A DNA stretch of 64,000 nucleotides from Kangiellaceae bacterium (GCA_965230505.1 OZ246006.1:3453752-3517751); one strand, 5' to 3'; counted from the stretch's first letter, positions 3,615 to 56,790 are shown. The notes: generated by a model from the sequence alone, not told the origin. Program-made: numbers and translations.

Positions 3615-3649
3615 AACGCCGGAAGCTGAAGAGCCCCGGCGTTTTTTTA
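3615..3649 (+). terminator. Rho-independent terminator-like hairpin
   Basis: AACGCCGG / CCGGCGTT stem followed by a 7-T run. Confidence 0.7.
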
Positions 3650-4125
3650 TGTCCAAGGATGGACGGTATTAAGAAAATGCAGGAGCAATTTTCTGTTATG
3701 TCCAAGGATGGACGGTATTAAGAAAATGCAGGAGCAATTTTCTGTTATGTCCAAGGATGGACGGTATTAAGAAAATGCAGGAGCAATTTTCTGTTATGTC
3801 CAAGGATGGACGGGCAGTTTCCAAGGATGGACGGGCAGTTTTTTGTTCCAGACAAAAACTGCACTTCCTACATCCATGTAGGTCGTATTCGGAAAATGCA
3901 GGAGCAATTTTCTGTTATGTCCAAGGATGGACGGGCAGTTTTTTGTTCCAGACAAAAACTGCACTTCCTACATCCATGTAGGTCGTATTCGGAAAATGCA
4001 GGAGCAATTTTCTGTTATGTCCAAGGATGGGTGGGCAGTTTATTGTTCCAGACAAAAACTGCACTTCCTACATCCGTGTAGGTCGTATTCGGAAAATGCA
4101 GGAGCAATCTTTTGCTTTGTCCATT
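3650..4125. repeat. Tandem repeat array: 3 x 49-bp units then 3 x ~121-bp units
   Basis: The unit GTCCAAGGATGGACGG..AAAATGCAGGAGCAATTTTCTGTTAT repeats with period 49. The long units are the same unit carrying an embedded ~65-nt double-hairpin (REP-like) element. The predicted ORFs here are repeat artefacts. Confidence 0.9.
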
Positions 4126-4660: not shown

Positions 4661-4755
4661 TGTCCATGGATGGACGGTATTCCGCAAGGAGCCATGGATG
4701 GCGGTGGGGTATTTTCGAACAATCAAATCTGCAAGAAGAATAATAGTCGTTATTG

Positions 4756-4832
4756 GGGTAACCATAGCTTAATGGTAAAGCTTCGGATTGTGGGTCCGAA
4801 TGATACGGGTTCGAATCCGGTTGGTTACCCCA
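4756..4832 (+). tRNA. tRNA-His (GTG)
   Basis: Manual cloverleaf. 8-bp acceptor stem with an extra 5' G pairing to C73 (His hallmark). D arm AGCT/AGCT. Anticodon stem TCGGA/TCCGA with loop TTGTGGG. T-loop TTCGAAT (one G-G mismatch in the T-stem). Confidence 0.7.
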
Positions 4833-4859
4833 ATGATGATTAATGAGAAAAAGATTAAC

Positions 4860-5032
4860 GCCCAGGTGGTGCTCAACTCTTTATAGAGAACCGAGCATAC
4901 GCGGCGGATTTAGAATCCGTTTATTGAGAGTTCGACGAGCTATGTAGGAACATCGCCGAACATCGGAAGAATGACGATGGCACGAAAGTGTGAAGACCAA
5001 GGATGGTCTGAATAATCTCTCCTTGGGCACCA
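4860..5032 (+). ncRNA. tRNA-like RNA with a conserved ~80-nt insertion in the T-loop (copy 1)
   Basis: Acceptor GCCCAGG/CTTGGGC with discriminator A and CCA. T-stem GAGAG/CTCTC. The T-loop starts TTCGA, then holds an 80-nt conserved element before closing. The D and anticodon region is non-canonical. Confidence 0.6.
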
Positions 5033-5052
5033 AATTTAGAAAGTTGAAGCTT

Positions 5053-5116
5053 TGAGTAGGTCAAAGTCCTGGTCTTGAAAATCAGTGGAACCTTAGTTGG
5101 TTTGGGCTCTACTCAT
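5053..5116 (+). ncRNA. Truncated tRNA-Ser(TGA)-like element
   Basis: 7-bp acceptor TGAGTAG/CTACTCA. Anticodon arm CTGGT-CTTGAAA-ATCAG. No T-arm. 64 nt. Confidence 0.35.
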
Positions 5117-5151
5117 TTTTATCTGGGGGCCTCCGGCTTCCACAGTTTAAC

Positions 5152-5240
5152 TGGAGAGTAATCCGTGATGGTGATCGGCGTCGTTTGCTAAACGAATGGA
5201 AGGCAATGTCTTTAAGGTTCAATTCCTTTTCTCTCCGCCA
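5152..5240 (+). ncRNA. Degenerate tRNA-like element (acceptor, T-arm and CCA present; anticodon arm non-canonical)
   Basis: GGAGAG/CTCTCC acceptor, TTCAATT T-loop, G discriminator and CCA. The central hairpin TCGTT-TGCTA-AACGA has a 5-nt loop. Confidence 0.4.
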
Positions 5241-5391
5241 ATTTAATGCGCCGGTGATGGCGATAAATATTACGAGCGAGGCATACATGCAATTTTAAAA
5301 GCAGGTTTTGACTTGCTCTTAGAAACTGTATCGAATCTCCCTCGGCGTAACAAATTTAGTATAGGTAATTGTAAAACTAAAAAGGAAAATA

Positions 5392-5505
5392 ATTGACGAC
5401 TAAACAACAAATATTTGCGTAGTAGGTTTGGAATTGAATGGGTCTGTTTCAAATTATATTGAGGGAATTCACTGAATTTTGGGTGAAGGACCAGTCTCAA
5501 CTCTG
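5392..5505. repeat. ~110-bp dispersed direct repeat, copy 2
   Basis: Matches 4178-4290. Confidence 0.85.
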
Positions 5506-5552
5506 ATGTTTGTAAGTTGTTGAAATAAAAGAATAAAAATAAAAATAAACTG

Positions 5553-5581
5553 TTGACGTACTGAAATTCCGATGGTTAAAT
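5553..5581 (+). promoter_or_regulatory. Sigma-70-like promoter (TTGACG-N17-TTAAAT)
   Basis: Good -35 hexamer, 17-nt spacer, AT-rich -10. No protein gene immediately downstream. Confidence 0.45.
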
Positions 5582-5693
5582 ACACAGCAAGAAATGAGTG
5601 ACATCCTTTGATATTAAAGATAAAAATTATTCTCGAGTCACAATATAGATTGTTTTTATTCAATCTTAGATAGATAGCTAAATAGAGTTAAAC

Positions 5694-5804
5694 ATGAAAA
5701 TGACAAACAACGATATACACGTGAAACAGCAAGGGCCTATATGGTCAGGTGTGTATTGTTACGCCAAATTTATGCGCAGAATTGAAGATACAAATATAGA
5801 TTAA
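5694..5804 (+). CDS. Possible 36-aa small ORF within a ~310-nt promoter-terminator unit
   Basis: ATG...TAA reads MKMTNNDIHVKQQGPIWSGVYCYAKFMRRIEDTNID. Weak RBS. Lies between the promoter at 5553 and the terminator at 5856. Confidence 0.2.
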   Translation: MKMTNNDIHVKQQGPIWSGVYCYAKFMRRIEDTNID

Positions 5805-5855
5805 GCTTCGAAGATAAATTTCGAGGCTAGTAATGAGTCTCGAAGGGAAATTAGA

Positions 5856-5891
5856 AACCTGGTTGAGACGATTCTTAACTAGGTTTTTTTA
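5856..5891 (+). terminator. Rho-independent terminator
   Basis: AACCTGGTT...AACTAGGTT stem followed by TTTTTTT. Confidence 0.6.
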
Positions 5892-6003
5892 TTTGGGATT
5901 TATAAAAATGTTTTTGAAAAAATTATTTGGAAAAGATGTTTTTGACATACAAGCGGCTTAACAGTCGCAATCAATTTAAAAATTGTCGCGGCTATAAATA
6001 ATA

Positions 6004-6094
6004 GCAGCGTAGTTTAAGGGTAAAACAGCGGGTTTATACTCCGTAGCAACAGATAATTGGCTGATCCGAGTTCGAGTCTCGGCGCTGCTACCAA
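6004..6094 (+). tRNA. Type-II-like (long variable arm) tRNA with anticodon TAT
   Basis: Perfect 7-bp acceptor AGCAGCG/CGCTGCT, A discriminator, CCA. D-stem GTTT/AAAC. Anticodon stem GCGGG/TCCGT with loop TTTATAC. 21-nt variable region. T-arm CCGAG-TTCGAGT-CTCGG. Confidence 0.5.
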
Positions 6095-6350
6095 ATTAAA
6101 AATTAGTATTATTAGATCAGATAAACATGAAAACGATTGTTAAACAAAAACAGATTATCAAACCGACGAATTGTTGGTGCGGTGATGTGCGTCCCGAACA
6201 AGGGAGTTGTCTCTTAATAGGTACTGGTAATCGCATGTATAAGATTTTTAATAGTTATGACAAACAAGGTGCCAGAGGTGCACCTATGTAACTCTGCAAG
6301 TTTTTGCTTGCGAGTTACGAAAAGTTTCTCTCGAGTATAGTGAAGTCGAG

Positions 6351-6380
6351 CCCGAGAGATAAAATCCTCGGGTTTTTTTA
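6351..6380 (+). terminator. Rho-independent terminator
   Basis: CCCGAG...CTCGGG stem followed by TTTTTTT. Confidence 0.7.
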
Positions 6381-6570
6381 TGCCTCTATCGTGGGCAACG
6401 TTCTTTAACAAATTAGGTTTCGCAAAAGAGTAAGAGCAGTCTGTTTGATGCTCGCAAGATTTTTTAAAAAGGATGGCGGGAGATGTGGATCTCGATCGGA
6501 TTGTAACCCCGACGCGCAAGCATGGCTGCTGGGGGGGGCGCACGTCTTCGACTCCAGGGTCATCCACCAG

Positions 6571-6646
6571 AGCAGGTGTAGTGTTAACGGCAGCACGTTT
6601 GGCTTCCACCCAAAAAGTTCGAGTTCGAATCTCGAGATCTGCTCCA
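6571..6646 (+). tRNA. tRNA-Gly(TCC)-like, non-canonical D region
   Basis: Acceptor AGCAGGT/ATCTGCT (one G-U). Anticodon arm TTTGG-CTTCCAC-CCAAA is perfect. T-arm TCGAG-TTCGAAT-CTCGA. Spacing around the D-arm is irregular. Confidence 0.45.
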
Positions 6647-6654
6647 AATTTTAT

Positions 6655-6730
6655 AGCGGGTCGGTGTAGTGGTTAACATAGAGGATTCATATTCCTCTGA
6701 ACGACAGTTCGAATCTGTCACCCGAAACCA
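6655..6730 (+). pseudogene. tRNA-Met(CAT)-like, probable pseudo-tRNA
   Basis: Anticodon arm GAGGA-TTCATAT-TCCTC. T-arm GACAG-TTCGAAT-CTGTC. CCA encoded. Only 5 of 7 acceptor pairs form, and positions 8-9 are CG rather than the usual U8. Confidence 0.45.
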
Positions 6731-6738
6731 TTATTTGT

Positions 6739-6814
6739 AGCAATGTAGCTCAGTTGGTAGAGCACACCCTTCATACGGGTGAGAGCACTGGTTCGAATCC
6801 AGTCATTGCTACCA
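6739..6814 (+). tRNA. tRNA-Met (CAT) (elongator or Ile-lysidine type, not distinguished)
   Basis: Canonical cloverleaf. AGCAATG/CATTGCT acceptor. GCTC/GAGC D-stem. CACCC-TTCATAC-GGGTG anticodon arm. ACTGG-TTCGAAT-CCAGT T-arm. A discriminator and CCA. Confidence 0.85.
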
Positions 6815-6821
6815 AATTTAT

Positions 6822-6978
6822 CTGGGATTAGCTCAGTCTGGTCAGAGTCCTCCGTTTGGAACGGAGATGTCGAAGGTTCAACGAGCATCGTAGGAACGAT
6901 GCCGAATATCGGAAGAATGACGATGGCACGTATGTGTGAAGACCATGGACGGTCTGAATAATCCTTCATCCCAGACCA
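6822..6978 (+). ncRNA. tRNA-Pro(TGG)-like gene with a conserved ~85-nt insertion in the T-loop (copy 2)
   Basis: Acceptor CTGGGAT/ATCCCAG with discriminator A and CCA. D-arm GCTC..GAGT. Anticodon arm CTCCG-TTTGGAA-CGGAG. T-stem GAAGG/CCTTC encloses TTCAA, then the insert, then AATAAT. The insert is about 85% identical to the one at 4860-5032. Confidence 0.65.
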
Positions 6979-7001
6979 ATTAATTTGTGAATAATAAACA
7001 A

Positions 7002-7122
7002 GGGGAAGTAGCTCAATTGGGAGAGGCAAGTTTTTGCTCCTGCAAAACTTGCACTTCCTACGTCCATGTAGGTCGCCACGCTTGCAAGTTTTCGGTTGTG
7101 AGTTCGAGTCTCATCTTCTCCA
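7002..7122 (+). ncRNA. tRNA-like gene carrying a REP-like double-hairpin insertion in the anticodon region
   Basis: Acceptor GGGGAAG/CTTCTCC. T-arm GTGAG-TTCGAGT-CTCAT. The interior holds GCAAGTTTTTGC-TCCT-GCAAAACTTGC plus ACTTCCTACGTCCATGTAGGTCG. The same element sits in the 3650-4125 array. It is flanked by the direct repeat GCAAGTTTT. Confidence 0.55.
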
Positions 7123-7131
7123 CTACATTAA

Positions 7132-7207
7132 GGGTGTATAGCTCAAATGGTAGAGCGACTGCCTGTTAAGTAGTTGGTTGAAGGTTCAAATCCTTCTGCG
7201 CCCGCCA
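7132..7207 (+). tRNA. tRNA-Asn (GTT)
   Basis: GGGTGTA/TGCGCCC acceptor (two G-U pairs). GCTC/GAGC D-stem. ACTGC-CTGTTAA-GTAGT anticodon arm. GAAGG-TTCAAAT-CCTTC T-arm. G discriminator and CCA. Confidence 0.8.
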
Positions 7208-7293
7208 ATTTAATGAATCGCGATGGTGAAATACAACTGAGGTTTCACCCTACAGACCCGTCACGGTGAAAGCCCGACTCAGTTATCTTTAAA

Positions 7294-7369
7294 CCCCGGA
7301 TAGCTCATTTGGTAGAGCACATGCCTGATAAGCGTGAGGTGGCTGGATCGTAACCAGCTCTGGGGACCA
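7294..7369 (+). tRNA. tRNA-Ile (GAT)
   Basis: CCCCGGA/TCTGGGG acceptor. GCTC/GAGC D-stem. CATGC-CTGATAA-GCGTG anticodon arm. T-arm GCTGG/CCAGC with an atypical loop ATCGTAA. A discriminator and CCA. Confidence 0.7.
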
Positions 7370-7377
7370 AATTTATT

Positions 7378-7453
7378 AGCACTTTAGCTCAATTGGTAGA
7401 GCGCCTGTTTTACACACAGGAGGTCGACTGTTCGATTCAGTCAAGTGCTACCA
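7378..7453 (+). tRNA. tRNA-Val (TAC)
   Basis: AGCACTT/AAGTGCT acceptor. GCTC/GAGC D-stem. CCTGT-TTTACAC-ACAGG anticodon arm. GACTG-TTCGATT-CAGTC T-arm. A discriminator and CCA. Confidence 0.85.
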
Positions 7454-7459
7454 GTTTAT

Positions 7460-7536
7460 GGGTTGCTAGCTCAATTGGTAGCAGCATCCGGCTTTTAACC
7501 GGAAGGTTCCGAGTTCGAATCTCGGGCGGCCCACCA
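7460..7536 (+). tRNA. tRNA-Lys (TTT)
   Basis: GGGTTGC/GCGGCCC acceptor (two G-U pairs). Anticodon arm TCCGG-CTTTTAA-CCGGA. T-arm CCGAG-TTCGAAT-CTCGG. A discriminator and CCA. The D-stem has one C-C mismatch. Confidence 0.75.
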
Positions 7537-7605
7537 AACATTCCAACATCACGAACCGAGGTGTGATGATACTTTTTGACGGTGGAAGTCCGTACTCGGT
7601 ATAGG

Positions 7606-7692
7606 ACACGAGTATACAAGTGGTCAAAGTAACCAGACTTTCAATCTGGTCTTATGAATAGTTCGCGGGTTCGAATCCCGTCTCGTGTGCCA
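7606..7692 (+). tRNA. Type-II-like tRNA (15-nt variable arm) with anticodon TTC
   Basis: Perfect acceptor ACACGAG/CTCGTGT, G discriminator, CCA. 3-bp D-stem. Anticodon arm CCAGA-CTTTCAA-TCTGG. T-arm GCGGG-TTCGAAT-CCCGT. Anticodon and architecture do not match any standard isoacceptor. Confidence 0.5.
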
Positions 7693-7697
7693 TATTT

Positions 7698-8037
7698 AGC
7701 TCCGTGGTGTAGTTGGTAACACTCAAGATTTTGATTAGGTACTTGGTATGACTGGTTAACGTGATTTCAGAACAATGTTTTCAGGTTAGTGCGAGGCGTA
7801 TTGTGCAGGAAATGGTATTCCCTTTTCAAACGATACAACGAAGCAATAATTTGAAAAAAATTGTTCCCGAAGGGCGGTTCCAGAAATTGCAAGCTATGTT
7901 GTTGTACTCCCTTGAATTGGCTACGGCCAGTCCTGCGGTCGTACGCCTAATATCTTACAATTTCTTGATTCGCTGAAGTCACGTTAACCAGTCATACCAA
8001 GTACTTATCGTTGGTTCGAACCCAGCCAGAGCTGCCA
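7698..8037 (+). ncRNA. tRNA-like scaffold whose anticodon-arm position holds a ~270-nt insertion with 27-bp perfect terminal inverted repeats
   Basis: 5' part: acceptor AGCTCCG, D-arm GTGT-AGTTGGTA-ACAC, then CAAGA-TTTTGATTA. 3' part: T-arm GTTGG-TTCGAAC-CCAGC, acceptor CAGAGCT, G, CCA. Between them lie GGTACTTGGTATGACTGGTTAACGTGA and its exact reverse complement. Confidence 0.6.
7738..8007. mobile_element. MITE-like insertion (27-bp perfect TIRs, ~215-bp core, possible TTA duplication)
   Basis: TIRs at 7738-7764 and 7979-8005 are perfectly complementary. The 71-aa internal ORF has no recognisable features. Confidence 0.5.
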
Positions 8038-8077
8038 AATACTAAACTAAAACTTCATGCCTTAAGGAGGATAAATC

Positions 8078-8389
8078 ATGAAACTATATTTAGACGATGT
8101 TCGTCCTGCTCCAGCAGGATGGAAGTTAGTGCGCTGGCCACAGGAAATGATTGAGCTTTTGATGACTGGTGCAGTCACGGATGTCAGCTTAGATCACGAT
8201 CTAGGCGATGACAAACGAGGTACTGGGTACGATGTAATTACTTGGCTGGAAAAAGCAGTTGTCGATTATGGATTAGTACCGCCAAACATTAAAGTTCATT
8301 CTGCGAATGTTCCGGCAAGAAAACGAATGGAGCGAGGGATTAAATCAGTTAACCACCTTTACCAATTTAGAAGTCGGTACCATTCATAA
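8078..8389 (+). CDS. Cyclic-phosphate processing receiver (CPR) domain protein
   Basis: 103 aa. The N-terminus MKLYLDDVRPAPAGW and overall size match the CPR-domain small-protein family recurrently linked to RNA-repair loci. Strong AGGAGG RBS. Confidence 0.65.
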   Translation: MKLYLDDVRPAPAGWKLVRWPQEMIELLMTGAVTDVSLDHDLGDDKRGTGYDVITWLEKAVVDYGLVPPNIKVHSANVPARKRMERGIKSVNHLYQFRSRYHS

Positions 8390-8536: not shown

Positions 8537-9115
8537 ATGCAAGCTCAGATCTTGCGACTTAACAAAGCTGGTCAAGCAATGGAGTGGATTAACTTTGAAT
8601 CCGCGGCTTGTTTGTACTCTAAAGATCAAGTGTTGTGGACATTTGGTAAAACTGCTGCACGTCTTAATGGTGGCCATTCGAGACTAACTGGACAACGGTC
8701 TTTTCTTGATATCGCTTCGGTAATCGCTACCGATGGTCAAATCCATCAACGCCATAGCCGTGTACCAGCTTTAAGCAACTACGCGTTATTCCAGCGAGAT
8801 GAGCATTTGTGTATGTATTGCGGAAAGCCTTTTAGTCGTTCAGAGTTAACTCGTGATCATGTTATTCCGCAGGCTCGAGGTGGAAAAAATACTTGGACCA
8901 ATTGTGTCGCGGCATGTAAGCCTTGTAATAATTTTAAGGGGTGTCGTACACCGGAAGAAGCTCACATGAGCCTAATAGCCATTCCATTCCGACCTAATAT
9001 TTCTGAGTACTTAGCTTTAGCGAATAGAAATATACTGGCCGATCAAATGGAGTTTTTGGTGAAAGGATTTTCAAATAATATGCTAGAAAAAGTAAAGCGT
9101 GAGAACAAAAAATAA
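8537..9115 (+). CDS. HNH endonuclease
   Basis: CMYCG...LTRDHVIPQARGG..W.N.VAAC..CN..KG zinc-finger/HNH signature. Good RBS (AAGGAG). Confidence 0.85.
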   Translation: MQAQILRLNKAGQAMEWINFESAACLYSKDQVLWTFGKTAARLNGGHSRLTGQRSFLDIASVIATDGQIHQRHSRVPALSNYALFQRDEHLCMYCGKPFSRSELTRDHVIPQARGGKNTWTNCVAACKPCNNFKGCRTPEEAHMSLIAIPFRPNISEYLALANRNILADQMEFLVKGFSNNMLEKVKRENKK

Positions 9116-24174: not shown

Positions 24175-25344
24175 ATGGGCAATCACAATGGATTTAATAT
24201 CCAAACATTGTCTGCGAGCGTTAATTTAATCGCCAATGCAGACACTTGGATCGAAGGTAAAGCGATCCAACAATTACAAAAAACAGCAGAGTTAGAAGGG
24301 GTTGTTAAGGCAGCAGGTATGCCGGATCTACATCCAGGAAGAGGTTATCCAATTGGCGCTGCTTTTTTAACGAAAAACAAAATTTACCCCGCTCTTATCG
24401 GGAATGATATAGGCTGCGGTATGACTTTATGGGCCACTGATATTAAAGTTAGAAAGGTGAACCTTGATAAATTTGAGAAGCGTCTTGAAAGTATTGATGA
24501 GCCGTTAACTGCAGACTGGCAAGACTATATCTCTGAAAGATATCGAAATAAAGCGTTATCTTCCAGCGGGTTTGAAAGAGCGCTCGGGACAATAGGAGGA
24601 GGGAATCATTTTGCTGAGCTACAGCGGCTTGATCAAGTCATTGATGAAGCGATTGTTAGTGAACTAGAAATTGATAAGAAGCATTTAGTCTTGTTAGTTC
24701 ACAGTGGCTCTAGAGGATTAGGCGAGCGTATTTTAAGAGCACATGTTGATAGTTTTGGTCATGCAGGCTTAGCGACTAATAGCGATGAATGTAATCAATA
24801 CATTGAACAGCACAACATGGCGATTAAGTTTGCGGAAATTAATCGTGAGTTAATCGCAAAGCGAATGCTTGATAATTTGCATGCCAAAGGAAAGGTGCTT
24901 TTGGATGTCAATCATAACTTAGTGACTGAAAAAATGATCGATAATCAATCGCACTGGATCCACCGCAAGGGAGCGACCCCTGCTGATTGTGGCTTAGTGA
25001 TGATGCCAGGTTCGAGAGGGGATTATAGTTACTTAGTGCACCCGAATGTTGATGCAGAGCTTGGATTTGAAAGTCTCTATTCGCTAGCGCATGGCGCAGG
25101 ACGTAAATGGATGCGGACTGAATGCAAAGATCGATTGTCAAAACGGTATCGACAATCGGACTTAGAAAGAACCGCACTAGGTAGTCGTGTTATTTGTAAG
25201 AATAAGGCACTGATTTTTGAAGAAGCACCTGAGGCTTACAAGCCAATATCATCAGTGATAGCGGCTATGCAGGAAGCGGGCTTGATTAAATTGGTGGCAC
25301 GATTTAAACCTGTTTTAACGTATAAAACAAGCGGAGGCTGCTAA
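24175..25344 (+). CDS. rtcB: RtcB-family RNA ligase, release-factor-H-coupled type (RtcB2)
   Basis: Metal/GTP-site motifs DLHPGRG, GCGM, GGGNHF, HSGSRGLG, HGAGR. Stop overlaps the prfH start. Confidence 0.9.
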   Translation: MGNHNGFNIQTLSASVNLIANADTWIEGKAIQQLQKTAELEGVVKAAGMPDLHPGRGYPIGAAFLTKNKIYPALIGNDIGCGMTLWATDIKVRKVNLDKFEKRLESIDEPLTADWQDYISERYRNKALSSSGFERALGTIGGGNHFAELQRLDQVIDEAIVSELEIDKKHLVLLVHSGSRGLGERILRAHVDSFGHAGLATNSDECNQYIEQHNMAIKFAEINRELIAKRMLDNLHAKGKVLLDVNHNLVTEKMIDNQSHWIHRKGATPADCGLVMMPGSRGDYSYLVHPNVDAELGFESLYSLAHGAGRKWMRTECKDRLSKRYRQSDLERTALGSRVICKNKALIFEEAPEAYKPISSVIAAMQEAGLIKLVARFKPVLTYKTSGGC

Positions 25345-25988
25345 TGATTTTATTACAACTATCCGCTGGGCAAGGTCCTGCTGAGTGTTGCCTAGCAGTT
25401 GCCAAAGCCATGGTTTTATTAGAGAAAGAAGCAAAGAAGTTGGATGTTATTCTTAGTCTGGTAGAAGAGGTTAATGGCCTCGAACGAAGGACTACTAAGT
25501 CGGCATTATATCGCTTAGAGGGAAAGGCATCATCAGAGCTAGCGCAAAAATGGAGTGGAACAATGCAATGGGTTTGTCAAAGTCCTTATAGGCCAAAACA
25601 TAAAAGAAAGAACTGGTTCTTTACGGGTAGTTATAGTGAACATGCCGAGATGAATTTCTCTAAAGCGATCACCTATGAAGCTTGTCGCTCTTCTGGACCG
25701 GGTGGGCAACATGCTAACAAGACAAGTTCAGCTGTGCGAGCGACTCATCTTGATTCGGGTATTTCTGTCAAAGTTCAATCAGAACGCAGTCAGCATATGA
25801 ACAAGCGATTGGCGAAAGCTTTGATTGAAGTGAAATTGGCTGAAAGCCAAAGAGATTCGGAACAGATAGAAAAAGGCAATAGACATAAGTCTCATCATTC
25901 GATTGAGAGAGGAAATGCAATTAGAGTCTTTAAAGGACCCGATTTTCTAACTGTAGTCACTGATGAGGAACAACGAAATGAGGTATAG
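25344..25988 (+). CDS. prfH: Peptide chain release factor H
   Basis: MILLQLSAGQGPAECC N-terminus and SGPGGQHANKTSSAVRATHL GGQ motif. Close to E. coli PrfH. Confidence 0.9.
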   Translation: MILLQLSAGQGPAECCLAVAKAMVLLEKEAKKLDVILSLVEEVNGLERRTTKSALYRLEGKASSELAQKWSGTMQWVCQSPYRPKHKRKNWFFTGSYSEHAEMNFSKAITYEACRSSGPGGQHANKTSSAVRATHLDSGISVKVQSERSQHMNKRLAKALIEVKLAESQRDSEQIEKGNRHKSHHSIERGNAIRVFKGPDFLTVVTDEEQRNEV

Positions 25989-26528: not shown

Positions 26529-27242
26529 ATGAATACTCAAGTGAAAAATAGGCGATTTAAATATCCGAGGACCATGCATTTACCATGGTCTCCGGGATTT
26601 ACAGACGATGATGTAAAAGGAGCAAGTTCAGAAATCTTTAATGGTCGAGAGGTTGTCATCACGGAAAAAATGGACGGTGAGAATACGACGTTATATAACG
26701 ATCATACTCATGCTCGTTCAATCGATAGTCGTCATCACCCATCTAGAGATTGGCTAAAGCGATGGCATGCAGAGTTCGCACATGAAATTCCATCCGGTTG
26801 GAGAATTTGCGGAGAGAATCTTTATGCGCAGCATTCAATTGTTTATGACAAGTTAGAAAGTTATTTTTATGGCTTCTCGATATGGAATGACAAAAATTAT
26901 TGCCTTAGTTGGGATGAAACCTTGGATTGGTTTCGTTTGCTCGAAATTACAACGCCAAAGGTGATCTATCGAGGGCTTTGGGATGAAAAACTTGTCCGTA
27001 GCATCAAGTTAGATACAGATGTCGTAGAAGGTTATGTTGTGCGGCTAGCCGAGCAATTTGATTTTGATAGTTTTAACTCTAGCGTTGCCAAATGGGTAAG
27101 AAAAGGACATGTACAAACGGATAAACACTGGATGCATGCAGAGCTGAAGCTAAATGGTTTAGCTGAAGTTAAATTCGAACACCAACTTGAGCCGTATAAA
27201 GCGACAATAGAAAATAAGGAGGTATCGAATGAAACCAAATAA
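26529..27242 (+). CDS. ATP-dependent RNA ligase (RNA_ligase/Rnl-type nucleotidyltransferase)
   Basis: YPRTMHLPWSPG N-terminal motif and KMDGEN (KxDG lysine-adenylylation motif I). Confidence 0.7.
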   Translation: MNTQVKNRRFKYPRTMHLPWSPGFTDDDVKGASSEIFNGREVVITEKMDGENTTLYNDHTHARSIDSRHHPSRDWLKRWHAEFAHEIPSGWRICGENLYAQHSIVYDKLESYFYGFSIWNDKNYCLSWDETLDWFRLLEITTPKVIYRGLWDEKLVRSIKLDTDVVEGYVVRLAEQFDFDSFNSSVAKWVRKGHVQTDKHWMHAELKLNGLAEVKFEHQLEPYKATIENKEVSNETK

Positions 27243-28497
27243 AAACAAAAAAGTAAATGCTTGGTTAAACGAGTTAGCCTCCAAGGCTAAACCTGATGTT
27301 AACGAATGCATTGAATACTTGGGCGAGAACTTTGAGTGGCTATACGAACTCAAAAATACACCTCAAGATCCTGAGTGGCACGCTGAAGGAAACGTACACA
27401 TCCACACAGATATGGTGCTCGCAAAGCTTTACAATTTGCTGGATAACGAAGCTTCTCATCTTAACGGCAAGCAACGACAAGCATTGATACTGGGCGCGCT
27501 TTTCCATGATATAGCTAAACCTATGCGGACGAAGAAAATAGAGATTAACGACGTTTTGCGAGTGGTTAGCCCACAACATGAATCAGTTGGTCGCTCCTAT
27601 CTAGCCTTTAAGCTAATGGAGTTGGAGCTTGAATTTGATGTAGTTTGGAATGTCTTAGGTTTAGTTGGAGAGCACCATATGCCAAAGTTGTTGGCTGTTA
27701 GAAACAAGGCAAAGGGTGATTACCTTGCTCTATCTCGGCGAGCAAACCTCGAACTCTTGTATTGGTTAGAAACCGCGGATATGAAAGGCCGAAGTTGCCC
27801 CGATTTGCCTTTGCAGCTACAACATTTGGCGGAATTTAAAATGTTTGCTGAAGAATATGGTGTTTGGAATAAACCCCATGAACTTGAGCAGGATTTTCTC
27901 AAGCTAGTTGAAGCTGAGAGTGACTCCATGGCGAGCTATATTCAGGCGTATGCTGTGTCAGAGTTAGAAAGTGGTGTTATTTCTCTACCCATTGAGGCGG
28001 TCGCTCGCACATTTGAATATAGGGAAAGCTATTCGAACTTGGTAGTCATTTGTGGTCCGAGTGGTTCAGGAAAAACCACTTGGATAGGAAATAACTGTGC
28101 AGACCATGTGCTGATTTCTCTTGACGATATAAGAGAAGAAATCAACGGAGATCGTAGAAGCCAGAAAAACAAGGGAAAGGTCATTCACCTTGCTCGAGAC
28201 CGACTGAAGCAGGCCTTGCGGAATAAACAAGATGTCGTTTGGGATGCGACTAATCTGCGCTCAGATTTCAGAAAAATCATTTGTGATCTCGGGCGTGATT
28301 ATCATGCCTTAGTCACCATTGTTTTGTTTATGTTGCCGGAGTCAATTATTTACCAAAATAATCGAAATCGAGAGTATGCGGTTCCGGAAGATGTATTGCT
28401 TAAGCAGTTTGAAGATTTTCAGTTTCCGTTAGTCAATGAGGCGCATTATTTTCAGATTGTTGGTGAGAAGGGGGAACTGCTTTTTTCGAACGAATAA
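27229..28497 (+). CDS. HD-domain phosphohydrolase fused to P-loop polynucleotide kinase (Pnkp-like RNA end-healing enzyme)
   Basis: HD motif (H...LFHDIAKP) in the N-terminal half. GPSGSGKTT Walker A and kinase-like C-terminal half. Start overlaps the ligase gene. Confidence 0.7.
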   Translation: MKPNKNKKVNAWLNELASKAKPDVNECIEYLGENFEWLYELKNTPQDPEWHAEGNVHIHTDMVLAKLYNLLDNEASHLNGKQRQALILGALFHDIAKPMRTKKIEINDVLRVVSPQHESVGRSYLAFKLMELELEFDVVWNVLGLVGEHHMPKLLAVRNKAKGDYLALSRRANLELLYWLETADMKGRSCPDLPLQLQHLAEFKMFAEEYGVWNKPHELEQDFLKLVEAESDSMASYIQAYAVSELESGVISLPIEAVARTFEYRESYSNLVVICGPSGSGKTTWIGNNCADHVLISLDDIREEINGDRRSQKNKGKVIHLARDRLKQALRNKQDVVWDATNLRSDFRKIICDLGRDYHALVTIVLFMLPESIIYQNNRNREYAVPEDVLLKQFEDFQFPLVNEAHYFQIVGEKGELLFSNE

Positions 28498-28988: not shown

Positions 28989-29762
28989 TTAGAGCACCCG
29001 ATGAAATAACTCATTCAACTCCTCAAAGTCGAAACTTCTCCCCAATTCAGTGCCACTATAATCTTCAAGCCTTTCAAGCTGAGAGGTAATAAACTGATTA
29101 ATAACAGGTACCGCCGGCGCAATCTCTTTTTCCATGGCTTGCTTTTTTCGCTCGATCAAATCGGTAATTGCTAAATCAAGTTCGGAACCTGTCTCAAGCA
29201 TTTGCCTGAGAGTATCAAACTCAATGGGTGCTGGCGTACGATACTTCTCCATCCACAAGATCGAGAGCAACGGTCTTAAAACGTAAAAATATTTCTTAAG
29301 TGGAACCATTGGTTTACGCAAATATCCTCTATAGTTGGTTTTAGCCATACTTCGATAATGGTATATCCCTTTATTAATCGAGTAGCTCGACGCCAGCATT
29401 TTCCTAGCAGACTCAGCGAATACTCCGTCGTCTCGATAGACAATAGATGAGTGCAGCCATTCAACAAATGAAGGGTTGGATTTTTTGAACAGCCTTAATG
29501 CTTTGCGAACATCCCATCCGCTGATATCTATTTCATCGACAATCGGGTATTCGATAACGTCGCGTTTCTCCTCGAGATCAACAGCGACATACCAATCTTT
29601 GGGATGGGCATAGATAAACCTGACATCATAGTCACTGTTAGGTGAAGCAAACCCCCAGGCTCTACTGCCTGATTCGACAGCGTAGAGGACTTTTACATTG
29701 TGCTCTTGTTCTGCAGCATCGATTCTTCGTTGAATTTCTTGTTCTATTTCTTTTGGTATCAT
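28989..29762 (-). CDS. RlaP-type (pol-beta superfamily) nucleotidyltransferase
   Basis: GSRAWGFASPNSDYDVRFIY nucleotidyltransferase core, typical of the RNA-repair-associated PF10127-like family. Confidence 0.65.
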   Translation of the reverse strand: MIPKEIEQEIQRRIDAAEQEHNVKVLYAVESGSRAWGFASPNSDYDVRFIYAHPKDWYVAVDLEEKRDVIEYPIVDEIDISGWDVRKALRLFKKSNPSFVEWLHSSIVYRDDGVFAESARKMLASSYSINKGIYHYRSMAKTNYRGYLRKPMVPLKKYFYVLRPLLSILWMEKYRTPAPIEFDTLRQMLETGSELDLAITDLIERKKQAMEKEIAPAVPVINQFITSQLERLEDYSGTELGRSFDFEELNELFHRVL

Positions 29763-29795: not shown

Positions 29796-30767
29796 TTATT
29801 CGTTTATTTGCTTGGTGACCAACCGGTTCTTATCCAAGTGATATCTATCAAGATCATTAGCCAACCAAAGGTTACCCCTAAAATATTGCTTAGCTTCGTT
29901 TTCAACCTCGTCAATAGAATCGGATTTATCACTGTCAGGCTGATAGCGCGCACTGAAGTGAGTAAGAATCAAATTCTTAATACCCGATTGCTCCGCAAAT
30001 TGAGCGACTCTCTTAGCGCAACTGTGTTGTGGTCCTGAACCTACTTTTTCTGAAACAGCGCTAGTGTAGGTCGACTCATGAACCAATAGGTCCGCTTCTT
30101 TTGCCGCTTGCGCTAAAAGGTCTGGGGTATCATTATCACCACCGATAACGATCTTTCTCGCTCTCTCTAATGGTAAATAGCAATCGGTGGCTTGGATTTC
30201 TTGTCCATTGTCTAGCGTAATTGACTGACCACTTTGAAGCTGACCCCATAAAGGTCCTCGTTCAATACTCAGTTTTTGTAACTTATCAACATCCAATCGA
30301 TTTGAGCGATTATTCTCAGTGAAGCTATAAGCAAAACTCGGCACTCGATGAGAGAGTTCAATCGCTTCGATTTTAAATTCCTTATCCTTATCATATAAAC
30401 CAAGTGATTCCGCAGAAACAAACACTATCGAGTAATTTAAGTATGTATCGGTTAGCTTAAACGTTGATGTAACGAATTCTTCGATACCTTTTGGCGCAAT
30501 AATAGTTAATGGCTCAGTGCGACCTGTCATTGCGGTAGTTGCTAGTAGTCCCGGTAATCCGTAACAATGGTCACCATGCACATGAGTAATGCATATTGTC
30601 TTTAAGTTTTTTAAAGACAGTTTTGTATGCAATAGTTGATGTTGCGTGCCTTCGCCACAATCGATTAGGGTCCATGATTTGCTGTCTTGTTTTTTTAATG
30701 CAAGACCGCTGACATTTCGGGATTTTGTTGGGACTCCGGAGGAGGTTCCTAAGAATGTGATTTCCAT
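29796..30767 (-). CDS. rnz: Ribonuclease Z / BN (tRNA 3' endonuclease, metallo-beta-lactamase fold)
   Basis: FLGTSSGVPT..RNV, DCGEGTQHQLLHT, HVHGDH..GLPGLL. Near-collinear with E. coli RNase BN. Confidence 0.85.
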   Translation of the reverse strand: MEITFLGTSSGVPTKSRNVSGLALKKQDSKSWTLIDCGEGTQHQLLHTKLSLKNLKTICITHVHGDHCYGLPGLLATTAMTGRTEPLTIIAPKGIEEFVTSTFKLTDTYLNYSIVFVSAESLGLYDKDKEFKIEAIELSHRVPSFAYSFTENNRSNRLDVDKLQKLSIERGPLWGQLQSGQSITLDNGQEIQATDCYLPLERARKIVIGGDNDTPDLLAQAAKEADLLVHESTYTSAVSEKVGSGPQHSCAKRVAQFAEQSGIKNLILTHFSARYQPDSDKSDSIDEVENEAKQYFRGNLWLANDLDRYHLDKNRLVTKQINE

Positions 30768-32969: not shown

Positions 32970-33046
32970 TGGTTACTTAGGTCGGAATCGAACCGACTAC
33001 CTATAGAGTAAATATCTATTGCTCTACCCAAATGAGCTACAAAGTA
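32970..33046 (-). ncRNA. tRNA-Lys(TTT)-like gene with A33 and one acceptor mismatch, located inside the rtc operon
   Basis: On the minus strand: TACTTTG acceptor, GCTC-ATTTGGGTA-GAGC D-arm, ATAGA-TATTTAC-TCTAT anticodon arm, GTCGG-TTCGATT-CCGAC T-arm, CTAAGTA-A-CCA. Confidence 0.5.
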
Positions 33047-33226: not shown

Positions 33227-34264
33227 TCAAGATTTTAGTCCCGTGATTACCACTTTCACTGTGTCTTCATCTATTTCGGTCACGCTAATGGCGTTGTCAA
33301 TAAATCGATTGATCACATCTATATTCGTTGTTACATGCTCGCTCATAGAATGAGTAATAAAGCTTCCGCCTTTACTTAAGACCATTGGCAACAATAGCTG
33401 ATCGGCTAAATGTTCACCAACCACAGCTTTTGAATTAAGAAATCGATTCAATTTTTTAATCGCTTTACCAGCGACTCGCTCAGCAGTGACTCCTTTTTGT
33501 GCCACTTCATCAAATAATTCTGTCGTATTCTCAAACTCTAAGCTCAATGAAATTAAGTTGCCGGGACCAAATGCCTCGACTTCTTTTTCAAGTAGCTCTT
33601 CAGAACTCCAATTCAATTTTTGAACAACTTTTTTCAACTCTCTTTGACTCACCGACATTGGGATCTTTGAAGTAAAAGTTGTGGCGTTCCTTGCCACTAG
33701 ATCACCTCTATCTAACATTTTTAACCTTCTTGTTTCTTTTTTCGGCTTAATGATTGCTGTCCACTGACCACCACCATTAGGGTAGAAACCATATCTGTCT
33801 AGCTTGCAGTCAACCCTATGTCCAATCTTACTAATCGCTTTATTAAAGCTCTTAGTAATAAACTCATAACTAGGCGCTTGCATATTGTGAGTACCGCCTT
33901 CCAAACTCACAGATGATTCTCCTTCAGCTTGAAGTAATGCTGGTAAGATGGTTTGGAAAACCAAACTAGTACTACCTGCCGTACCGATAGCAAATCGATA
34001 CTCCCCACATTTTATTTTCCCTGGAGCGAAGTCGATATAACTTGATTTAAGTTCATCACCCTCGACCTGAGCATCACAGATTGTTTTAGCTGCTCGAACG
34101 CAGGTTAAGTGCTGGCGGAGTAGCCCTGGTTTTTTTCTTCCTGCTCGAATGTTTTCAATTCGAATGGGAGTTTGTAAACACATTGATAGAGAGAGGGAAG
34201 TGCGGAGGATTTGTCCACCGCCTTCGCCTTGGCTGCCATCAATAGTGATTTTTTGCTTATTCAT
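33227..34264 (-). CDS. rtcA: RNA 3'-terminal phosphate cyclase
   Basis: IDGSQGEGGGQILRTSLSLS and near-collinearity with E. coli RtcA. Confidence 0.9.
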   Translation of the reverse strand: MNKQKITIDGSQGEGGGQILRTSLSLSMCLQTPIRIENIRAGRKKPGLLRQHLTCVRAAKTICDAQVEGDELKSSYIDFAPGKIKCGEYRFAIGTAGSTSLVFQTILPALLQAEGESSVSLEGGTHNMQAPSYEFITKSFNKAISKIGHRVDCKLDRYGFYPNGGGQWTAIIKPKKETRRLKMLDRGDLVARNATTFTSKIPMSVSQRELKKVVQKLNWSSEELLEKEVEAFGPGNLISLSLEFENTTELFDEVAQKGVTAERVAGKAIKKLNRFLNSKAVVGEHLADQLLLPMVLSKGGSFITHSMSEHVTTNIDVINRFIDNAISVTEIDEDTVKVVITGLKS

Positions 34265-34930: not shown

Positions 34931-36181
34931 CTACCCCTTAACACATACAACCTGCTTCAAAGTATGTACTACTTCAACCAAATCACTCTGTGCTTCCATG
35001 ACCTTATCAATATCCTTATAAGCTGATGGTGTCTCGTCAATCACATCCTTATCTTTTCGACATTCAACACCTTTGGTTGCTTGCAAATGTTCTTCCATTG
35101 AAACCACTTTTTTAGCTTGGGTTCTTGACATCACTCGCCCTGCGCCATGACTACAACTACAAAAGCTATCTTGGTTTCCGAGTCCCCTAACTATGAAGGA
35201 TCTTGCTCCCATACTTCCGGGAATAATCCCCATCTCACCCTCCCTGGCTCTCACTGCTCCTTTCCTCGTCACAATGACATTCTTACCAAAGTGATGCTCC
35301 CTTGAGATGTAGTTATGATGACAGTTCACCGCTTCTAAACTTGCCTCAAACTCAAAGCTCAAACTTGATTTAACTGCGGCAATCACTCTTTGCATCATCA
35401 CCTCTCTGTTAGTTCTTGCGAAGTTTTGAGCCCACTCAACAGCTTCTACATAATCGTTAAAGTGGTCGCTTCCTTCAGGCAAATAGGCCAAATCTTTATC
35501 CGGCAAGTTGATATGCCAACGTTGCATATCTTTTTTAGCCTGTTCGATAAAGTGAGTTCCAATTCTGTTTCCCACACCTCTCGAACCGCTATGTAACATA
35601 AACCAAACTTGATTTTTTTGGTCTAAGCAGACTTCGATAAAATGGTTTCCAGTTCCCAATGTTCCTAAGTGTGCTACGTTGTTAGTGTTCTTTAACACAG
35701 CGTGTTTTTCACATAATCGATCAAAATCTGGCGACAGGTTTTTCCATGCTCCAATAACATCAGCCGGTAAATCATTCCATGAGCCTTTATCTCTTCCTCG
35801 TCTCGCTCGAGCTGAACGTCCATGTGGTACTGCTGCCTCAATGGCGGTTCTAATCGCAAACAAATTGTCAGGTAGTTGACTAGCATTCATCGACGTTTTA
35901 ACGGCCATCATTCCGCAGCCGATATCAACACCAACCGCCGCTGGAATAACCGCACCTAATGTTGGCACTACGCTTCCAATCGTCGCACCTTTACCAAGGT
36001 GAACGTCCGGCATAGCAGCGACCCATTTATGGATAAAAGGCAGAGAAGCAATATTCTTCAACTGTTGTCTGGCTTTATCTTCAAACGGTACACCTTTGGT
36101 CCAAGACTTAATCGGTACACCGGTTGATTGCATGACTTCGTAGTTTGCCGGAGTTGCTTTTGTTTCAGTATTAATTTCCAT
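34931..36181 (-). CDS. rtcB: RtcB RNA ligase (canonical)
   Basis: HLGKGATIGSV, GVDIGCGM, GTGNHFIE, HSGSRGVGN, CSHGAGR. 416 aa. Confidence 0.95.
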   Translation of the reverse strand: MEINTETKATPANYEVMQSTGVPIKSWTKGVPFEDKARQQLKNIASLPFIHKWVAAMPDVHLGKGATIGSVVPTLGAVIPAAVGVDIGCGMMAVKTSMNASQLPDNLFAIRTAIEAAVPHGRSARARRGRDKGSWNDLPADVIGAWKNLSPDFDRLCEKHAVLKNTNNVAHLGTLGTGNHFIEVCLDQKNQVWFMLHSGSRGVGNRIGTHFIEQAKKDMQRWHINLPDKDLAYLPEGSDHFNDYVEAVEWAQNFARTNREVMMQRVIAAVKSSLSFEFEASLEAVNCHHNYISREHHFGKNVIVTRKGAVRAREGEMGIIPGSMGARSFIVRGLGNQDSFCSCSHGAGRVMSRTQAKKVVSMEEHLQATKGVECRKDKDVIDETPSAYKDIDKVMEAQSDLVEVVHTLKQVVCVKG

Positions 36182-36421: not shown

Positions 36422-38017
36422 ATGAAAACCACTGTAATTAGTATTTTAGGGACTAATTTAGATAGAAGAGGGCGTAATGCAATACGTTGGGACAAGTGGC
36501 GACCCAATATCGCCTTGTGTCAGCAGGAAGATTTGATTGTCGACAAATTGGTGTTATTACATGAGCCAAATTTTGAAAAATTAGCGGTTCAAGTTAAGGA
36601 TGATATTAAGGTAGTCTCGCCGGAAACAGAAGTGGTGTTTTATTCGGTGGATTTTTCCAGTCCTTGGGATTTTGAGTCGGTTTATAGTCAGCTTTATGAT
36701 TTTAGTCAGAAGCATCAATTTAATACAGAGCAAGAAGAGCTCTTGATCCATATCACTACCGGCACTCATGTTGCTCAAATTTGTTTGTATCTGCTTACTG
36801 AAACTCATTACCTGCCAGGTAAGCTTTTTCAAACATCGCCTGGTAATAAAGACAATCCGACCGCAGGTAATTATCAAATCATTGATTTGGACTTATCTAA
36901 ATATGATCAAATTGCATCGCGCTTCAACCAAGAAAGATTGACTGGCGCTGACTTTTTGAAATCTGGAATTGAAACAAGAAATATCAAGTTCAACAAGATG
37001 ATACAGCAAATCGAAAAGGTTTCTCTACTCTCTAAAGAGCCGATGTTAATTACCGGTGAAACCGGCGCGGGTAAAACTCGACTGGTAAAACGTATTTATG
37101 AATTAAAACAAAAACGAGGACAAGTCACGGGTAAGTTTGTGGTAGTCAATTGCGCCACTTTAATCGGCGATAAAGCAATGTCAGCATTATTTGGGCATAG
37201 TAAAGGTGCTTTTACTGGCGCATTAAATGCTAGGAATGGCTTATTAAAGGAAGCGGATGGTGGTTTATTATTTCTGGATGAAATTGCAGAGTTAGGTCTT
37301 GATGAGCAAGCAATGTTGTTAAAGGCTATAGAGGAAAAAAGCTATCTGCCCTTGGGAGCTGACAGTGAAGTAAAAAGTAACTTTCAATTGATCGCCGGAA
37401 CCAACCACAATATCAATGAGACCGTTGCCAAAGGAGGGTTTAGAGAGGATTTATTAGCTAGAATTAACCTTTGGAGCTATCAGTTACCATCACTCAAAGA
37501 CCGAATAGAAGACTTAGAACCTAACTTAGACTTTGAACTTAGACAGTTTGCCAAAAAAGCCGGTCACATGGTTAGCTTCAACAAAGCTGCACGAACTCTT
37601 TATTTGAACTTCGCCAAATCACCAGAAGCACTTTGGAGTGCAAATTTTAGAGATTTAAACTCCAGTGTGACTCGAATGGCGACCTTATCGGAAGGAGGGA
37701 GAATTTCGGAAAACGAAGTTAAAGAGGAAATTATTAGATTAAAACAGCAATGGCTAGGGCAGGTTAGAATTGCCGAGGAACCCGAGCAAACTGCAATTGA
37801 TATACTTGGGGCTAACCGAGCCAAAGAGTTAGACAATTTGGAAAAATATACTTTAGTAGGGGTTCAAAGCATTTGTCGCCAATCCAACTCAATGGCAGAA
37901 GCCGGTAGAAAGTTATTCAATGTTTCTCGTTTAGAAAAGAAGTCGAAAAATGATTCTCATCGTTTGAAGCAGTTGTTGACCAAGTACGGTTTGACTTTTG
38001 AAGAGCTGAAGAGCTGA
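36422..38017 (+). CDS. rtcR: Sigma-54-dependent transcriptional regulator RtcR
   Basis: N-terminal CARF-like domain (LVLLHEP...ITTGTHVAQIC). AAA+ sigma-54 activator core (GETGAGKT, GAFTGA). C-terminal HTH. Collinear with E. coli RtcR. Confidence 0.9.
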   Translation: MKTTVISILGTNLDRRGRNAIRWDKWRPNIALCQQEDLIVDKLVLLHEPNFEKLAVQVKDDIKVVSPETEVVFYSVDFSSPWDFESVYSQLYDFSQKHQFNTEQEELLIHITTGTHVAQICLYLLTETHYLPGKLFQTSPGNKDNPTAGNYQIIDLDLSKYDQIASRFNQERLTGADFLKSGIETRNIKFNKMIQQIEKVSLLSKEPMLITGETGAGKTRLVKRIYELKQKRGQVTGKFVVVNCATLIGDKAMSALFGHSKGAFTGALNARNGLLKEADGGLLFLDEIAELGLDEQAMLLKAIEEKSYLPLGADSEVKSNFQLIAGTNHNINETVAKGGFREDLLARINLWSYQLPSLKDRIEDLEPNLDFELRQFAKKAGHMVSFNKAARTLYLNFAKSPEALWSANFRDLNSSVTRMATLSEGGRISENEVKEEIIRLKQQWLGQVRIAEEPEQTAIDILGANRAKELDNLEKYTLVGVQSICRQSNSMAEAGRKLFNVSRLEKKSKNDSHRLKQLLTKYGLTFEELKS

Positions 38018-56297: not shown

Positions 56298-56790
56298 CGG
56301 CGACTAATGGCATTAGTTGTCTCACATAAATCGTTATCTTTTCAGTTCTCAGTGACCGCTATGAAAAACAACTGAGTGACAGCTTTAGAAGTGGTCTTTT
56401 TAGAGTATACCCAAATAGAACAAGCCTAAATCGGTCTGTTTTAGAATTGCAACACCACCTATAATAGATCGATATTATAGTACCACTTAAAACAGACTAG
56501 AATTTCAAGTCAAAATAGCAAATGGATGGTTACTTAAAAGTATCAACAGCAGTAGATATTTTATGTTTCGAGGCAATTGGCTAATGTCCGCTTCTGGCCG
56601 AATCCTGAATAACTCACGATTTGTGATAAATGTCTGCTTTATAGTATGTTCCTGCCGTAGTGTCAGATCAAATAGAGACTTGATTAAAAATTTGTAAGCT
56701 CGAGTCTCAACTTTCTCAGATAAAGATAAATCGCAGTAAATATCATTCTGCTCAAAGCCAAGCTACGACAACCAGTTTATAAAAACAAAA

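Follow-up and report, generated by a model that had tools for sequence, protein, structure and literature searches.

The window analysed here, a 64,000-nt stretch of DNA, belongs to a bacterial chromosome (~40% GC) and not to a phage. It carries a tRNA array (~4750-8040), which is directly followed by a gene for the receiver-domain protein cREC (8078-8389) and then by an HNH endonuclease gene (8537-9115). cREC is uncharacterised but is predicted to process cyclic phosphates in RNA-repair systems (PMC9503650, PMC7824862); those of the closest homologues of the cREC protein that are named carry Kangiellaceae names. After the array, a dense RNA-repair island (8078-38017) encodes RtcB2-PrfH (24175-25988), an Rnl-type RNA ligase (26529-27242), a protein with HD and AAA_33 kinase domains (27229-28497), RlaP (28989-29762), a metallo-beta-lactamase (29796-30767), RtcA (33227-34264), RtcB (34931-36181), and RtcR (36422-38017). 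A lone tRNA-Lys(UUU) gene lies on the minus strand at 32970-33046, and nothing in Rfam matches the 667 nt that separate rtcA from rtcB. Long tRNA arrays are known to adjoin RNA-processing genes, and rtcB is co-regulated with the array in Anabaena (PMC8421152). One proposed role of accessory tRNA arrays that neighbour RNA-repair genes is to let cells or phages withstand toxins that cut tRNAs (PMC8421152, PMC12803027).

Structured modules in tRNA genes of the array

At least six array tRNAs contain a module of 83 to 86 nt, here called T88, inserted almost exactly between T-loop nucleotides 58 and 59 and always in the tRNA sense. It occurs in the window at 4935-5017 and 6880-6965 and in related loci (L001, 10458-10539; L002, 2705-2786; L006, 519-602; L007, 7095-7177). 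Its hosts are Leu-UAG-like, Pro-UGG, Cys-GCA, Arg-ACG-like, and other tRNAs, with intact alleles in sister strains. T88 is predicted to fold into four hairpins with covarying stems and with GGA in two hexaloops, and its only match in Rfam is a weak one that is RsmZ-like. With two RtcB genes nearby, T88 could be a tRNA intron that is not of group I, or else a protein-binding module carried on tRNAs, and it may be of more interest than the tRNA-Gln insert described below.

Just upstream of the array, tandem repeats at 3647-4123 (49 nt × 3.4 and 100 nt × 3) form hairpins with GGA loops (GTCC-AAGGAT-GGAC and GAAAAT-GCAGGAGCA-ATTTTC) and look like a sponge RNA of the CsrB/RsmZ type. Part of the 100-nt unit recurs in a tRNA-like gene at 7002-7125, which has G3:U70, an A73 discriminator, and no encoded CCA, and in which an insert of ~50 nt with two conserved hairpins takes the place of the anticodon/variable region. 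This gene scores 34.7 bits with the Rfam tRNA model and has a weak local tmRNA match; a covarying homologue lies inside a larger scaffold in L006 (360-617).

Other genes of the array have features of their own. The leader and trailer of tRNA-His (4744-4842; TAGTCGTTATTGGGGTAACCA and TGGTTACCCCAATGATGATTA) pair for 18 to 21 bp past the acceptor stem, and the pairing is conserved at the homologous sites in L001, L007, L017, and L022, which suggests an extended processing stem. A long-arm tRNA at 5152-5237 scores 40.5 bits on the tRNA-Sec model, for which the threshold is 47. A tRNA-like sequence with a good acceptor stem that ends in CCACCA (6473-6571) had gone undetected. In a more distant array (L037, 4549-4646), the anticodon stem (ACTTGG/CCAAGT) of a 98-nt tRNA, which otherwise has a Glu-like body, surrounds ~29 nt rather than a 7-nt loop, a further case of an enlarged anticodon region in such arrays.

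A 270-nt insert interrupts a tRNA-Gln gene

The chromosomal array lies within the RNA-repair island of what resembles a marine gammaproteobacterium of the Kangiellaceae, and its last or next-to-last gene, an accessory one, encodes tRNA-Gln. In many loci this gene stands beside a tRNA of 87 nt whose anticodon is UUC (Glu) and whose variable arm is long, which in the window lies at 7606-7692. Positions 7698-8037 of the plus strand of the window read as a tRNA-Gln(UUG) frame in two parts. The 5′ part (7698-7736) consists of the acceptor 5′ strand AGCTCCG (7698-7704), followed by U8 and G9; the D-arm GTGT-AGTTGGTA-ACAC (7707-7722), followed by nucleotide 26; the 5′ strand of the anticodon stem, CAAGA (7724-7728); the anticodon loop TTTTGAT (7729-7735), with the anticodon TTG at 7731-7733; and T39 (7736), the last tRNA base before the insert. 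The 3′ part (8007-8037) consists of a variable-loop remnant, ATC (8007-8009; (T)ATC if counted from 8006), the T-arm GTTGG TTCGAAC CCAGC (8010-8026), the acceptor 3′ strand CAGAGCT (8027-8033), and G73 with CCA (8034-8037). Pair 3:70 of the frame is C-G. A first-pass annotation of this DNA had described the acceptor, D-arm, T-arm, and CCA as intact; all are present, with one C·A mismatch between the two acceptor strands. Neither ARAGORN nor the Rfam tRNA model calls a tRNA at 7698-8037.

To compare alleles, we collected 34 related loci by way of cREC homologues and cluster members. The tRNA-Gln site is empty in 19 loci, which have an intact gene, and occupied in 14, including the window. In two of the empty loci, L016 and L023, the tRNA-Gln sequence to either side of the insertion point is the same as in the window: the 5′ part of the window matches at 39 of 39 nt, and the 3′ part is the same as in these alleles, which we call type B. 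Their gene reads AGCTCCG TG GTGT AGTTGGTA ACAC T CAAGA TTTTGAT TCTTG CATC GTTGG TTCGAAC CCAGC CAGAGCT G CCA. ARAGORN calls the intact alleles tRNA-Gln(ttg), including those of L016, L023, and L034; the tRNA-Gln sequence of L034 is the same, to either side of the insertion point, as that around the second form of the insert (see below). Since such intact alleles exist, the window allele is an insertion, and the empty site that the first-pass annotation had proposed to look for is found in relatives. The same alleles settle what is absent: nucleotides 40-44 (CTTG plus one base) are gone, as had been claimed for the 3′ strand of the anticodon stem, and the variable loop, which had been thought absent too, is partly kept. 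We also considered that the T-stem had evolved in compensation after the insertion, and we rejected this idea; GTTGG/CCAGC is a feature of the type-B allele and is present without any insert in L016 and L023.

The insert itself occupies 7737-8006 (270 nt) and substitutes nucleotides 40-44 (CTTG plus C/T). It exists in two forms. The first, F1, is found in the window, L001, and L019, with cores that are 93-96% identical. The second, F2, is found in 11 loci that stem from several samples (L005, L006, L027-L033, L035, and L036). The F1 junction reads GATT[AGGTAC...GTACTT]ATC, against GATTCTTG(C/T)ATC at the empty site, and the F2 junction reads GATTCTT[AGTGTAC...GAAGT]ACAGG, against GATTCTTGTATCACAGG in L034. 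Thus, F2 lies 3 nt farther along the same tRNA-Gln gene than F1, and five tRNA nucleotides are replaced in each case (40-44 in F1, 43-47 in F2). In all 11 F2 loci, the core aligns to F1 solely as the reverse complement, with ~70-71% identity, and the sequence of the central mini-hairpin (see below) is common to F1 and the F2 inserts of the L027 type. The array around these alleles is highly mosaic, loci being 68 to 98% identical in short stretches of their flanks.

The insert is predicted to fold into a closing stem with two long arms

The insert is bounded by inverted repeats of 35 nt that are 94% complementary (7736-7770 and 7973-8007), where the chance expectation is none. A 27-bp repeat within them had been called perfect; it matches at 26 of 27 positions, G7738 standing opposite T8005, which would form a G·U pair in RNA. 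A related half-site that had been reported at about 6228 has only TAGGTACT and GGTA in common with the repeat, which is at chance level, and falls within a conserved 54-codon ORF. A BLAST search of the window with the insert gave nothing but chance matches of 12-16 nt.

The minimum free energy (MFE) fold of the insert has an energy of -136.5 kcal/mol (z = -8.8 relative to shuffled sequences) and consists of a closing stem of 31-35 bp and two long arms of ~100 nt each. The closing stem, H1, which has 33 bp in the MFE fold, pairs a left arm (7737-7769) with a right arm (7974-8006), as indicated by the inverted-repeat search, the fold, and covariation. In the MFE fold, arm A (helices H2-H4, 7770-7866) ends in an apical loop at 7816-7819, a central mini-hairpin sits at the three-way junction (7867-7873, inside TTCCCGAAGGGCG), and arm B (helices H5-H7, 7874-7973) ends in a C(UACG)G tetraloop (7922-7925). 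Enforcing the acceptor, D, and T stems gives -135.7 kcal/mol, compared with -136.5 for the MFE. Because this cost is only 0.8 kcal/mol, a tRNA-like top half whose anticodon arm is replaced by a giant arm is feasible in the model.

We asked whether the insert belongs to a known class of RNA or protein gene. No family in Rfam matches it on either strand. Group I introns, tmRNA, Y RNA/YrlA, and ribozymes were rejected, as none has an Rfam match at the site, in F1 or F2, on either strand. In particular, the group I intron core (RF00028) has no match at E values up to 1 in either form on either strand, ARAGORN detects no tmRNA at the site, and the resemblance to Y RNAs that had been drawn earlier finds no YrlA or Y RNA match in Rfam at 7698-8037. 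Protein coding was likewise rejected: indels disrupt a 71-codon ORF (7761-7976) in F2 as well as in L001 and L019, Pfam has no match for this ORF, and no ORF in the insert is conserved among copies. The arms were also considered as guides directed at phage or other targets. Their matches in the phage collection have E values of about 5, which is chance, and there are none in the window.

The junctions bear on a further possibility, that the insert is a true tRNA intron, self-splicing or else cut by an endonuclease and sealed by RtcB, whose removal restores tRNA-Gln. Its position close to the anticodon arm of a tRNA gene would suit an intron, as would the two RtcB genes, RtcA, and the Rnl-type ligase in the window. 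Besides the missing group I match, the junctions show no bulge-helix-bulge motif, and the F2 core is reversed. Because nucleotides 40-44 (F1) or 43-47 (F2) are gone, no excision or re-ligation can restore a canonical anticodon stem and variable loop. We consider an intron that yields functional tRNA-Gln highly implausible.

Features for and against a mobile element

The first-pass annotation had read the insert as a recent MITE-type insertion. More broadly, it could be a classical MITE or a hairpin mobilised as single-stranded DNA, like REPINs or IS200/IS605 elements, for which the tRNA-Gln gene was a preferred target, struck twice in opposite orientations. The insert does have MITE-like traits: it is small (270 nt) and non-coding, it has long terminal inverted repeats (35 nt at 94%), and it is present in some strains and absent from others. 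Two separate events would account for the opposite orientations and for the 3-nt offset between the junctions. G·T wobbles are concentrated on one strand of the element, and in both forms, read in the orientation of the element, TTTGA precedes the conserved GTAC terminus at a distance of exactly 4 nt, although this last match was noticed post hoc.

Several observations argue against such an element. Comparison with the empty alleles reveals no direct repeat, and hence no target-site duplication, at the F1 or F2 junctions; five target bases are replaced instead. The ends to which a transposase binds are usually conserved, whereas the terminal repeats here have diverged between F1 and F2 and yet remain paired. 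A profile search of 348,867 bases of related loci found the element at the tRNA-Gln site only, and the search for further copies that had been suggested earlier gave none elsewhere in the window. The sole transposase of the window (Transposase_mut ORF, 55057-56265) belongs to an intact IS of the IS256 family (54993-56298), whose terminal repeats are imperfect and 29 bp long and whose 9-bp target duplication is GGCGACTAA. The ends of this IS are unrelated to the insert, and we rejected it as the parent.

A search of eight arrays for other long inverted-repeat inserts found none. Public collections were scanned by exact match, which would miss diverged copies and even the F2 inserts of the L027 type. 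A 20-mer from the arm gave 0 matches in viral and 0 in genome collections, and a 21-mer from the core also gave 0 in each. The same core 21-mer has five matches in metagenomes that have neither repeats nor tRNA context and are attributed to chance, and a core 17-mer has two chance matches in viral contigs, both within coding sequence. Among GenBank phages, the region has no homologue apart from a tRNA. The junctions, the diverged ends, the single occupied site in the sequences searched, the unrelated IS, and the age of the insert (see below) make a mobile element improbable.

The insert is old and its structure is maintained

The cores of F1 and F2 are ~70-71% identical, a value near to but a little lower than that of the adjacent cREC DNA of the same lineages (76-77%). 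Divergence within F1 likewise parallels that of the flanks. Because its divergence tracks that of the flanking genes, as expected of resident sequence and not of a recent arrival, the insert is, by this measure, as old as the split between the F1 and F2 lineages. The near-perfect repeats point to ongoing maintenance rather than to youth.

We aligned five sequences, with F1 as is and F2 reverse-complemented, and examined covariation. The alignment contains 103 predicted pairs in seven helices, and 96.3% of its cells are standard pairs. Thirty-three pairs are changed on both sides (2-5 with slid partners), and none of 500 shuffles equalled the observed covariation. In H1, 13 of 31 pairs are doubly changed and 98% of cells are paired; the corresponding fractions of doubly changed pairs are 8/21 in H2, 2/8 in H3, 7/21 in H5, 2/8 in H6, and 1/7 in H7. 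The terminal repeats are the least conserved part of the insert. The closing stem has kept its length, with GTAC conserved at its outer end and TTCAG/CTGAA at its inner end; in the middle 23 bp, only 11 of 23 positions are common to F1 and F2, yet the stem is fully paired in each. The pattern extends to close relatives. Between the window and L019, both F1, there are 25 differences, 20 of them in paired columns, and 14 make up seven doubly changed pairs, including TGG->AAC with CCA->GTT. Identity between F1 and F2 is 72% in internal loops and bulges, 66% in helices, and 0% in apical loops.

Two processes could be the source of this covariation: selection on a folded single strand, or correction of one arm against the other at the DNA level. 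Template switching in quasi-palindromes is a DNA-level process of the latter kind, in which one repeat arm is corrected against the other. The conservation of more than 100 pairs, and of bulges as well, exceeds what a merely tolerated insert would need and could hint at a function.

Orientation and strand of the insert

The two orientations raise the possibility of an inverton, in which a recombinase would turn around the 200 bp that lie between the inverted repeats and thereby switch expression of the locus. Inverted repeats of 33-35 bp around ~200 bp have the right architecture, and both orientations occur in nature. In the assemblies, however, orientation follows lineage, 11 of 11 F2 loci being one way and 3 of 3 F1 loci the other, each form with its own arm sequence. 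Furthermore, no recombinase was found among the window ORFs of ≥150 aa that were scanned, and promoter-like matches inside the insert are at chance level. We therefore regard a switch of this kind as very unlikely.

We compared the strands to determine which is better suited to folding as RNA. In every copy, the element's own strand has 8-10 G·U pairs (10-11 when counted on the tRNA-sense strand of F1) and 0-1 C·A mismatches. This strand is tRNA-sense in F1 and antisense to the tRNA in F2. F1 folds better on its tRNA-sense strand, by 8-17 kcal/mol; the two strands of F2 fold equally well, and the consensus energies of the two strands are close (-108.8 and -103.0 kcal/mol). On the tRNA-sense strand, F2 has C(UUCG)G tetraloops, and the apical loop of arm B is UACG in F1 and UUCG in F2; aligned in the orientation of the element, this loop differs at 4 of 4 positions. 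These strand signals conflict; RNA-level selection on the tRNA-sense transcript, combined with an inversion in the history of F2, would fit all of them.

These signals are pertinent to the idea that a tRNA scaffold displays the insert as a functional structured RNA, the Y-shaped 270-nt domain being the working part. The tRNA frame would provide processing by RNase P, a CCA end, and stability, and the domain would serve the island, for example, as a decoy or binding platform. This idea accounts for the very strong conservation of structure, bulges included, for the G·U pairs and better folding of the F1 tRNA-sense strand, and for the UNCG-type tetraloops on that strand in both forms. It also has parallels in the sense-oriented structured modules that other tRNA frames of the array hold (T88, in at least six tRNAs, and the hairpin module at 7002-7125) and a possible setting in an island that encodes two RtcB proteins, RtcA, RtcR, an Rnl-type ligase, RlaP, PrfH, and cREC. 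On the other hand, because the F2 core is reverse-complemented, the F1 and F2 transcripts differ in their loop and bulge sequences. On the tRNA-sense strand, F2 keeps about seven positions as C·A mismatches. The element is missing altogether from many close relatives, and no homologue was found outside the lineage in GenBank phages or in exact-match scans of public collections. On balance, we consider a functional RNA possible but doubtful.

Discussion

That the tRNA-Gln gene of the window carries an insertion is real; the interpretation of this insertion as a recent MITE is largely wrong. Our preferred reading, to which we assign a probability of roughly 45% and which is accordingly tentative, is that the insert is an old palindromic insert resembling an rRNA intervening sequence (IVS), located in a dispensable tRNA gene of the array, co-transcribed as a hairpin, and spread by recombination. 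Under this reading, the insert would have entered the site once or twice, long ago, and would have persisted and been transferred between alleles by homologous recombination in the mosaic array. The opposite orientations of F1 and F2 would reflect either one inversion across the insert's own inverted repeats or a second insertion. The insert would be transcribed together with the tRNA, and a self-contained hairpin would be extruded from an otherwise intact acceptor/D/T frame. By analogy with the IVSs of 23S rRNA, RNase III processing of the long stem is plausible; the enzyme would probably cut the duplex, with no re-ligation to follow. The interrupted gene, at least in F1, would be expected to yield no normal decoding tRNA.

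A related proposal assigns the insert work as an RNA in one of two ways, either as a stable Y-shaped RNA released by RNase III-like cleavage or as a whole, 340-nt tRNA-scaffolded RNA that serves the island. We judge this unlikely, and slightly more so than a functional RNA in general. If release occurs, what is left may be a two-piece tRNA-like molecule joined by the stub of the stem, in effect a bacterial "tRNA intervening sequence," possibly tied to the surrounding repair genes for RtcB, RtcA, Rnl, and cREC.

Whichever reading applies, the locus indicates that tRNA genes of an array can hold large inserts of conserved structure over long periods. It also provides a natural set of alleles (empty, occupied forward, and occupied reverse) that is suited to tests of transcript fate. 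Processing like that of IVSs, if it takes place, would bring to tRNA a phenomenon known from rRNA. A functional RNA in this position would be a natural counterpart of the engineered tRNA scaffold, and a working insert together with T88 would make accessory tRNA arrays expression platforms for other structured RNAs. If the insert is merely a tolerated palindrome, it cautions against dating insertions by the perfection of their inverted repeats.

The insert can be compared with four kinds of known systems. Like group I tRNA introns and archaeal introns with a bulge-helix-bulge (BHB) motif, it adds ~250 nt to a tRNA gene close to the anticodon. It differs from them in that it has neither an intron core nor a BHB motif, its junctions are imprecise with 5 nt lost, and one lineage has it in reversed orientation. 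With tmRNA, YrlA, and engineered tRNA scaffolds it shares a frame of acceptor and T-arm with CCA in which a long helix leading to a large domain replaces the anticodon arm. Unlike tmRNA, it has no Ala identity (3:70 is C-G, not G·U) and no tag reading frame, and unlike both tmRNA and YrlA, the locus derives from an ordinary tRNA-Gln gene by insertion.

MITEs and palindromic repeats such as Correia, ERIC, RPE, and REPIN elements are also small and non-coding with long terminal inverted repeats; they form hairpins when transcribed and may sit in genes, including RNA genes. The insert differs from MITEs in the lack of a target duplication, in ends that vary between its forms, and in the single site found occupied in the sequences searched. 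No parent IS is present in the window, and the insert is old and has diverged together with its locus.

The closest likeness is to the IVSs in 23S rRNA of Salmonella, Leptospira, and Coxiella. To our knowledge, known IVSs reside in rRNA and not in tRNA. In both cases, hundreds of nucleotides substitute a few nucleotides of a helix of the host RNA, the terminal repeats form a near-perfect stem (~28 bp in IVSs), the predicted fold is very stable, and the insert is sporadic among strains and resident in a gene for a stable RNA. The IVS of Coxiella is 428-444 nt long with a ΔG of -143 kcal/mol. Its terminal repeats pair, apart from one mismatch and one bulge, in a stem of 28 bp; RNase III cuts this stem in the middle without re-ligation, and such elements are sporadic (PMC4990558). 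As in IVSs, complementary termini close the insert by a long duplex (>20 bp), here the covarying H1 of 31-33 bp. Excision by RNase III in mid-stem is a feature of IVSs that is only predicted by analogy for the tRNA-Gln insert. The differences are that IVSs lie in helix 9, 25, or 45 whereas the host here is a tRNA-Gln gene, that there is no sequence similarity, that the insert occurs in two orientations, and that a tRNA split at this point may not work. The tRNA-Gln insert is thus best read as an IVS-like palindrome that occupies a tRNA gene in two orientations, with unusually strong covariation and a restricted distribution.
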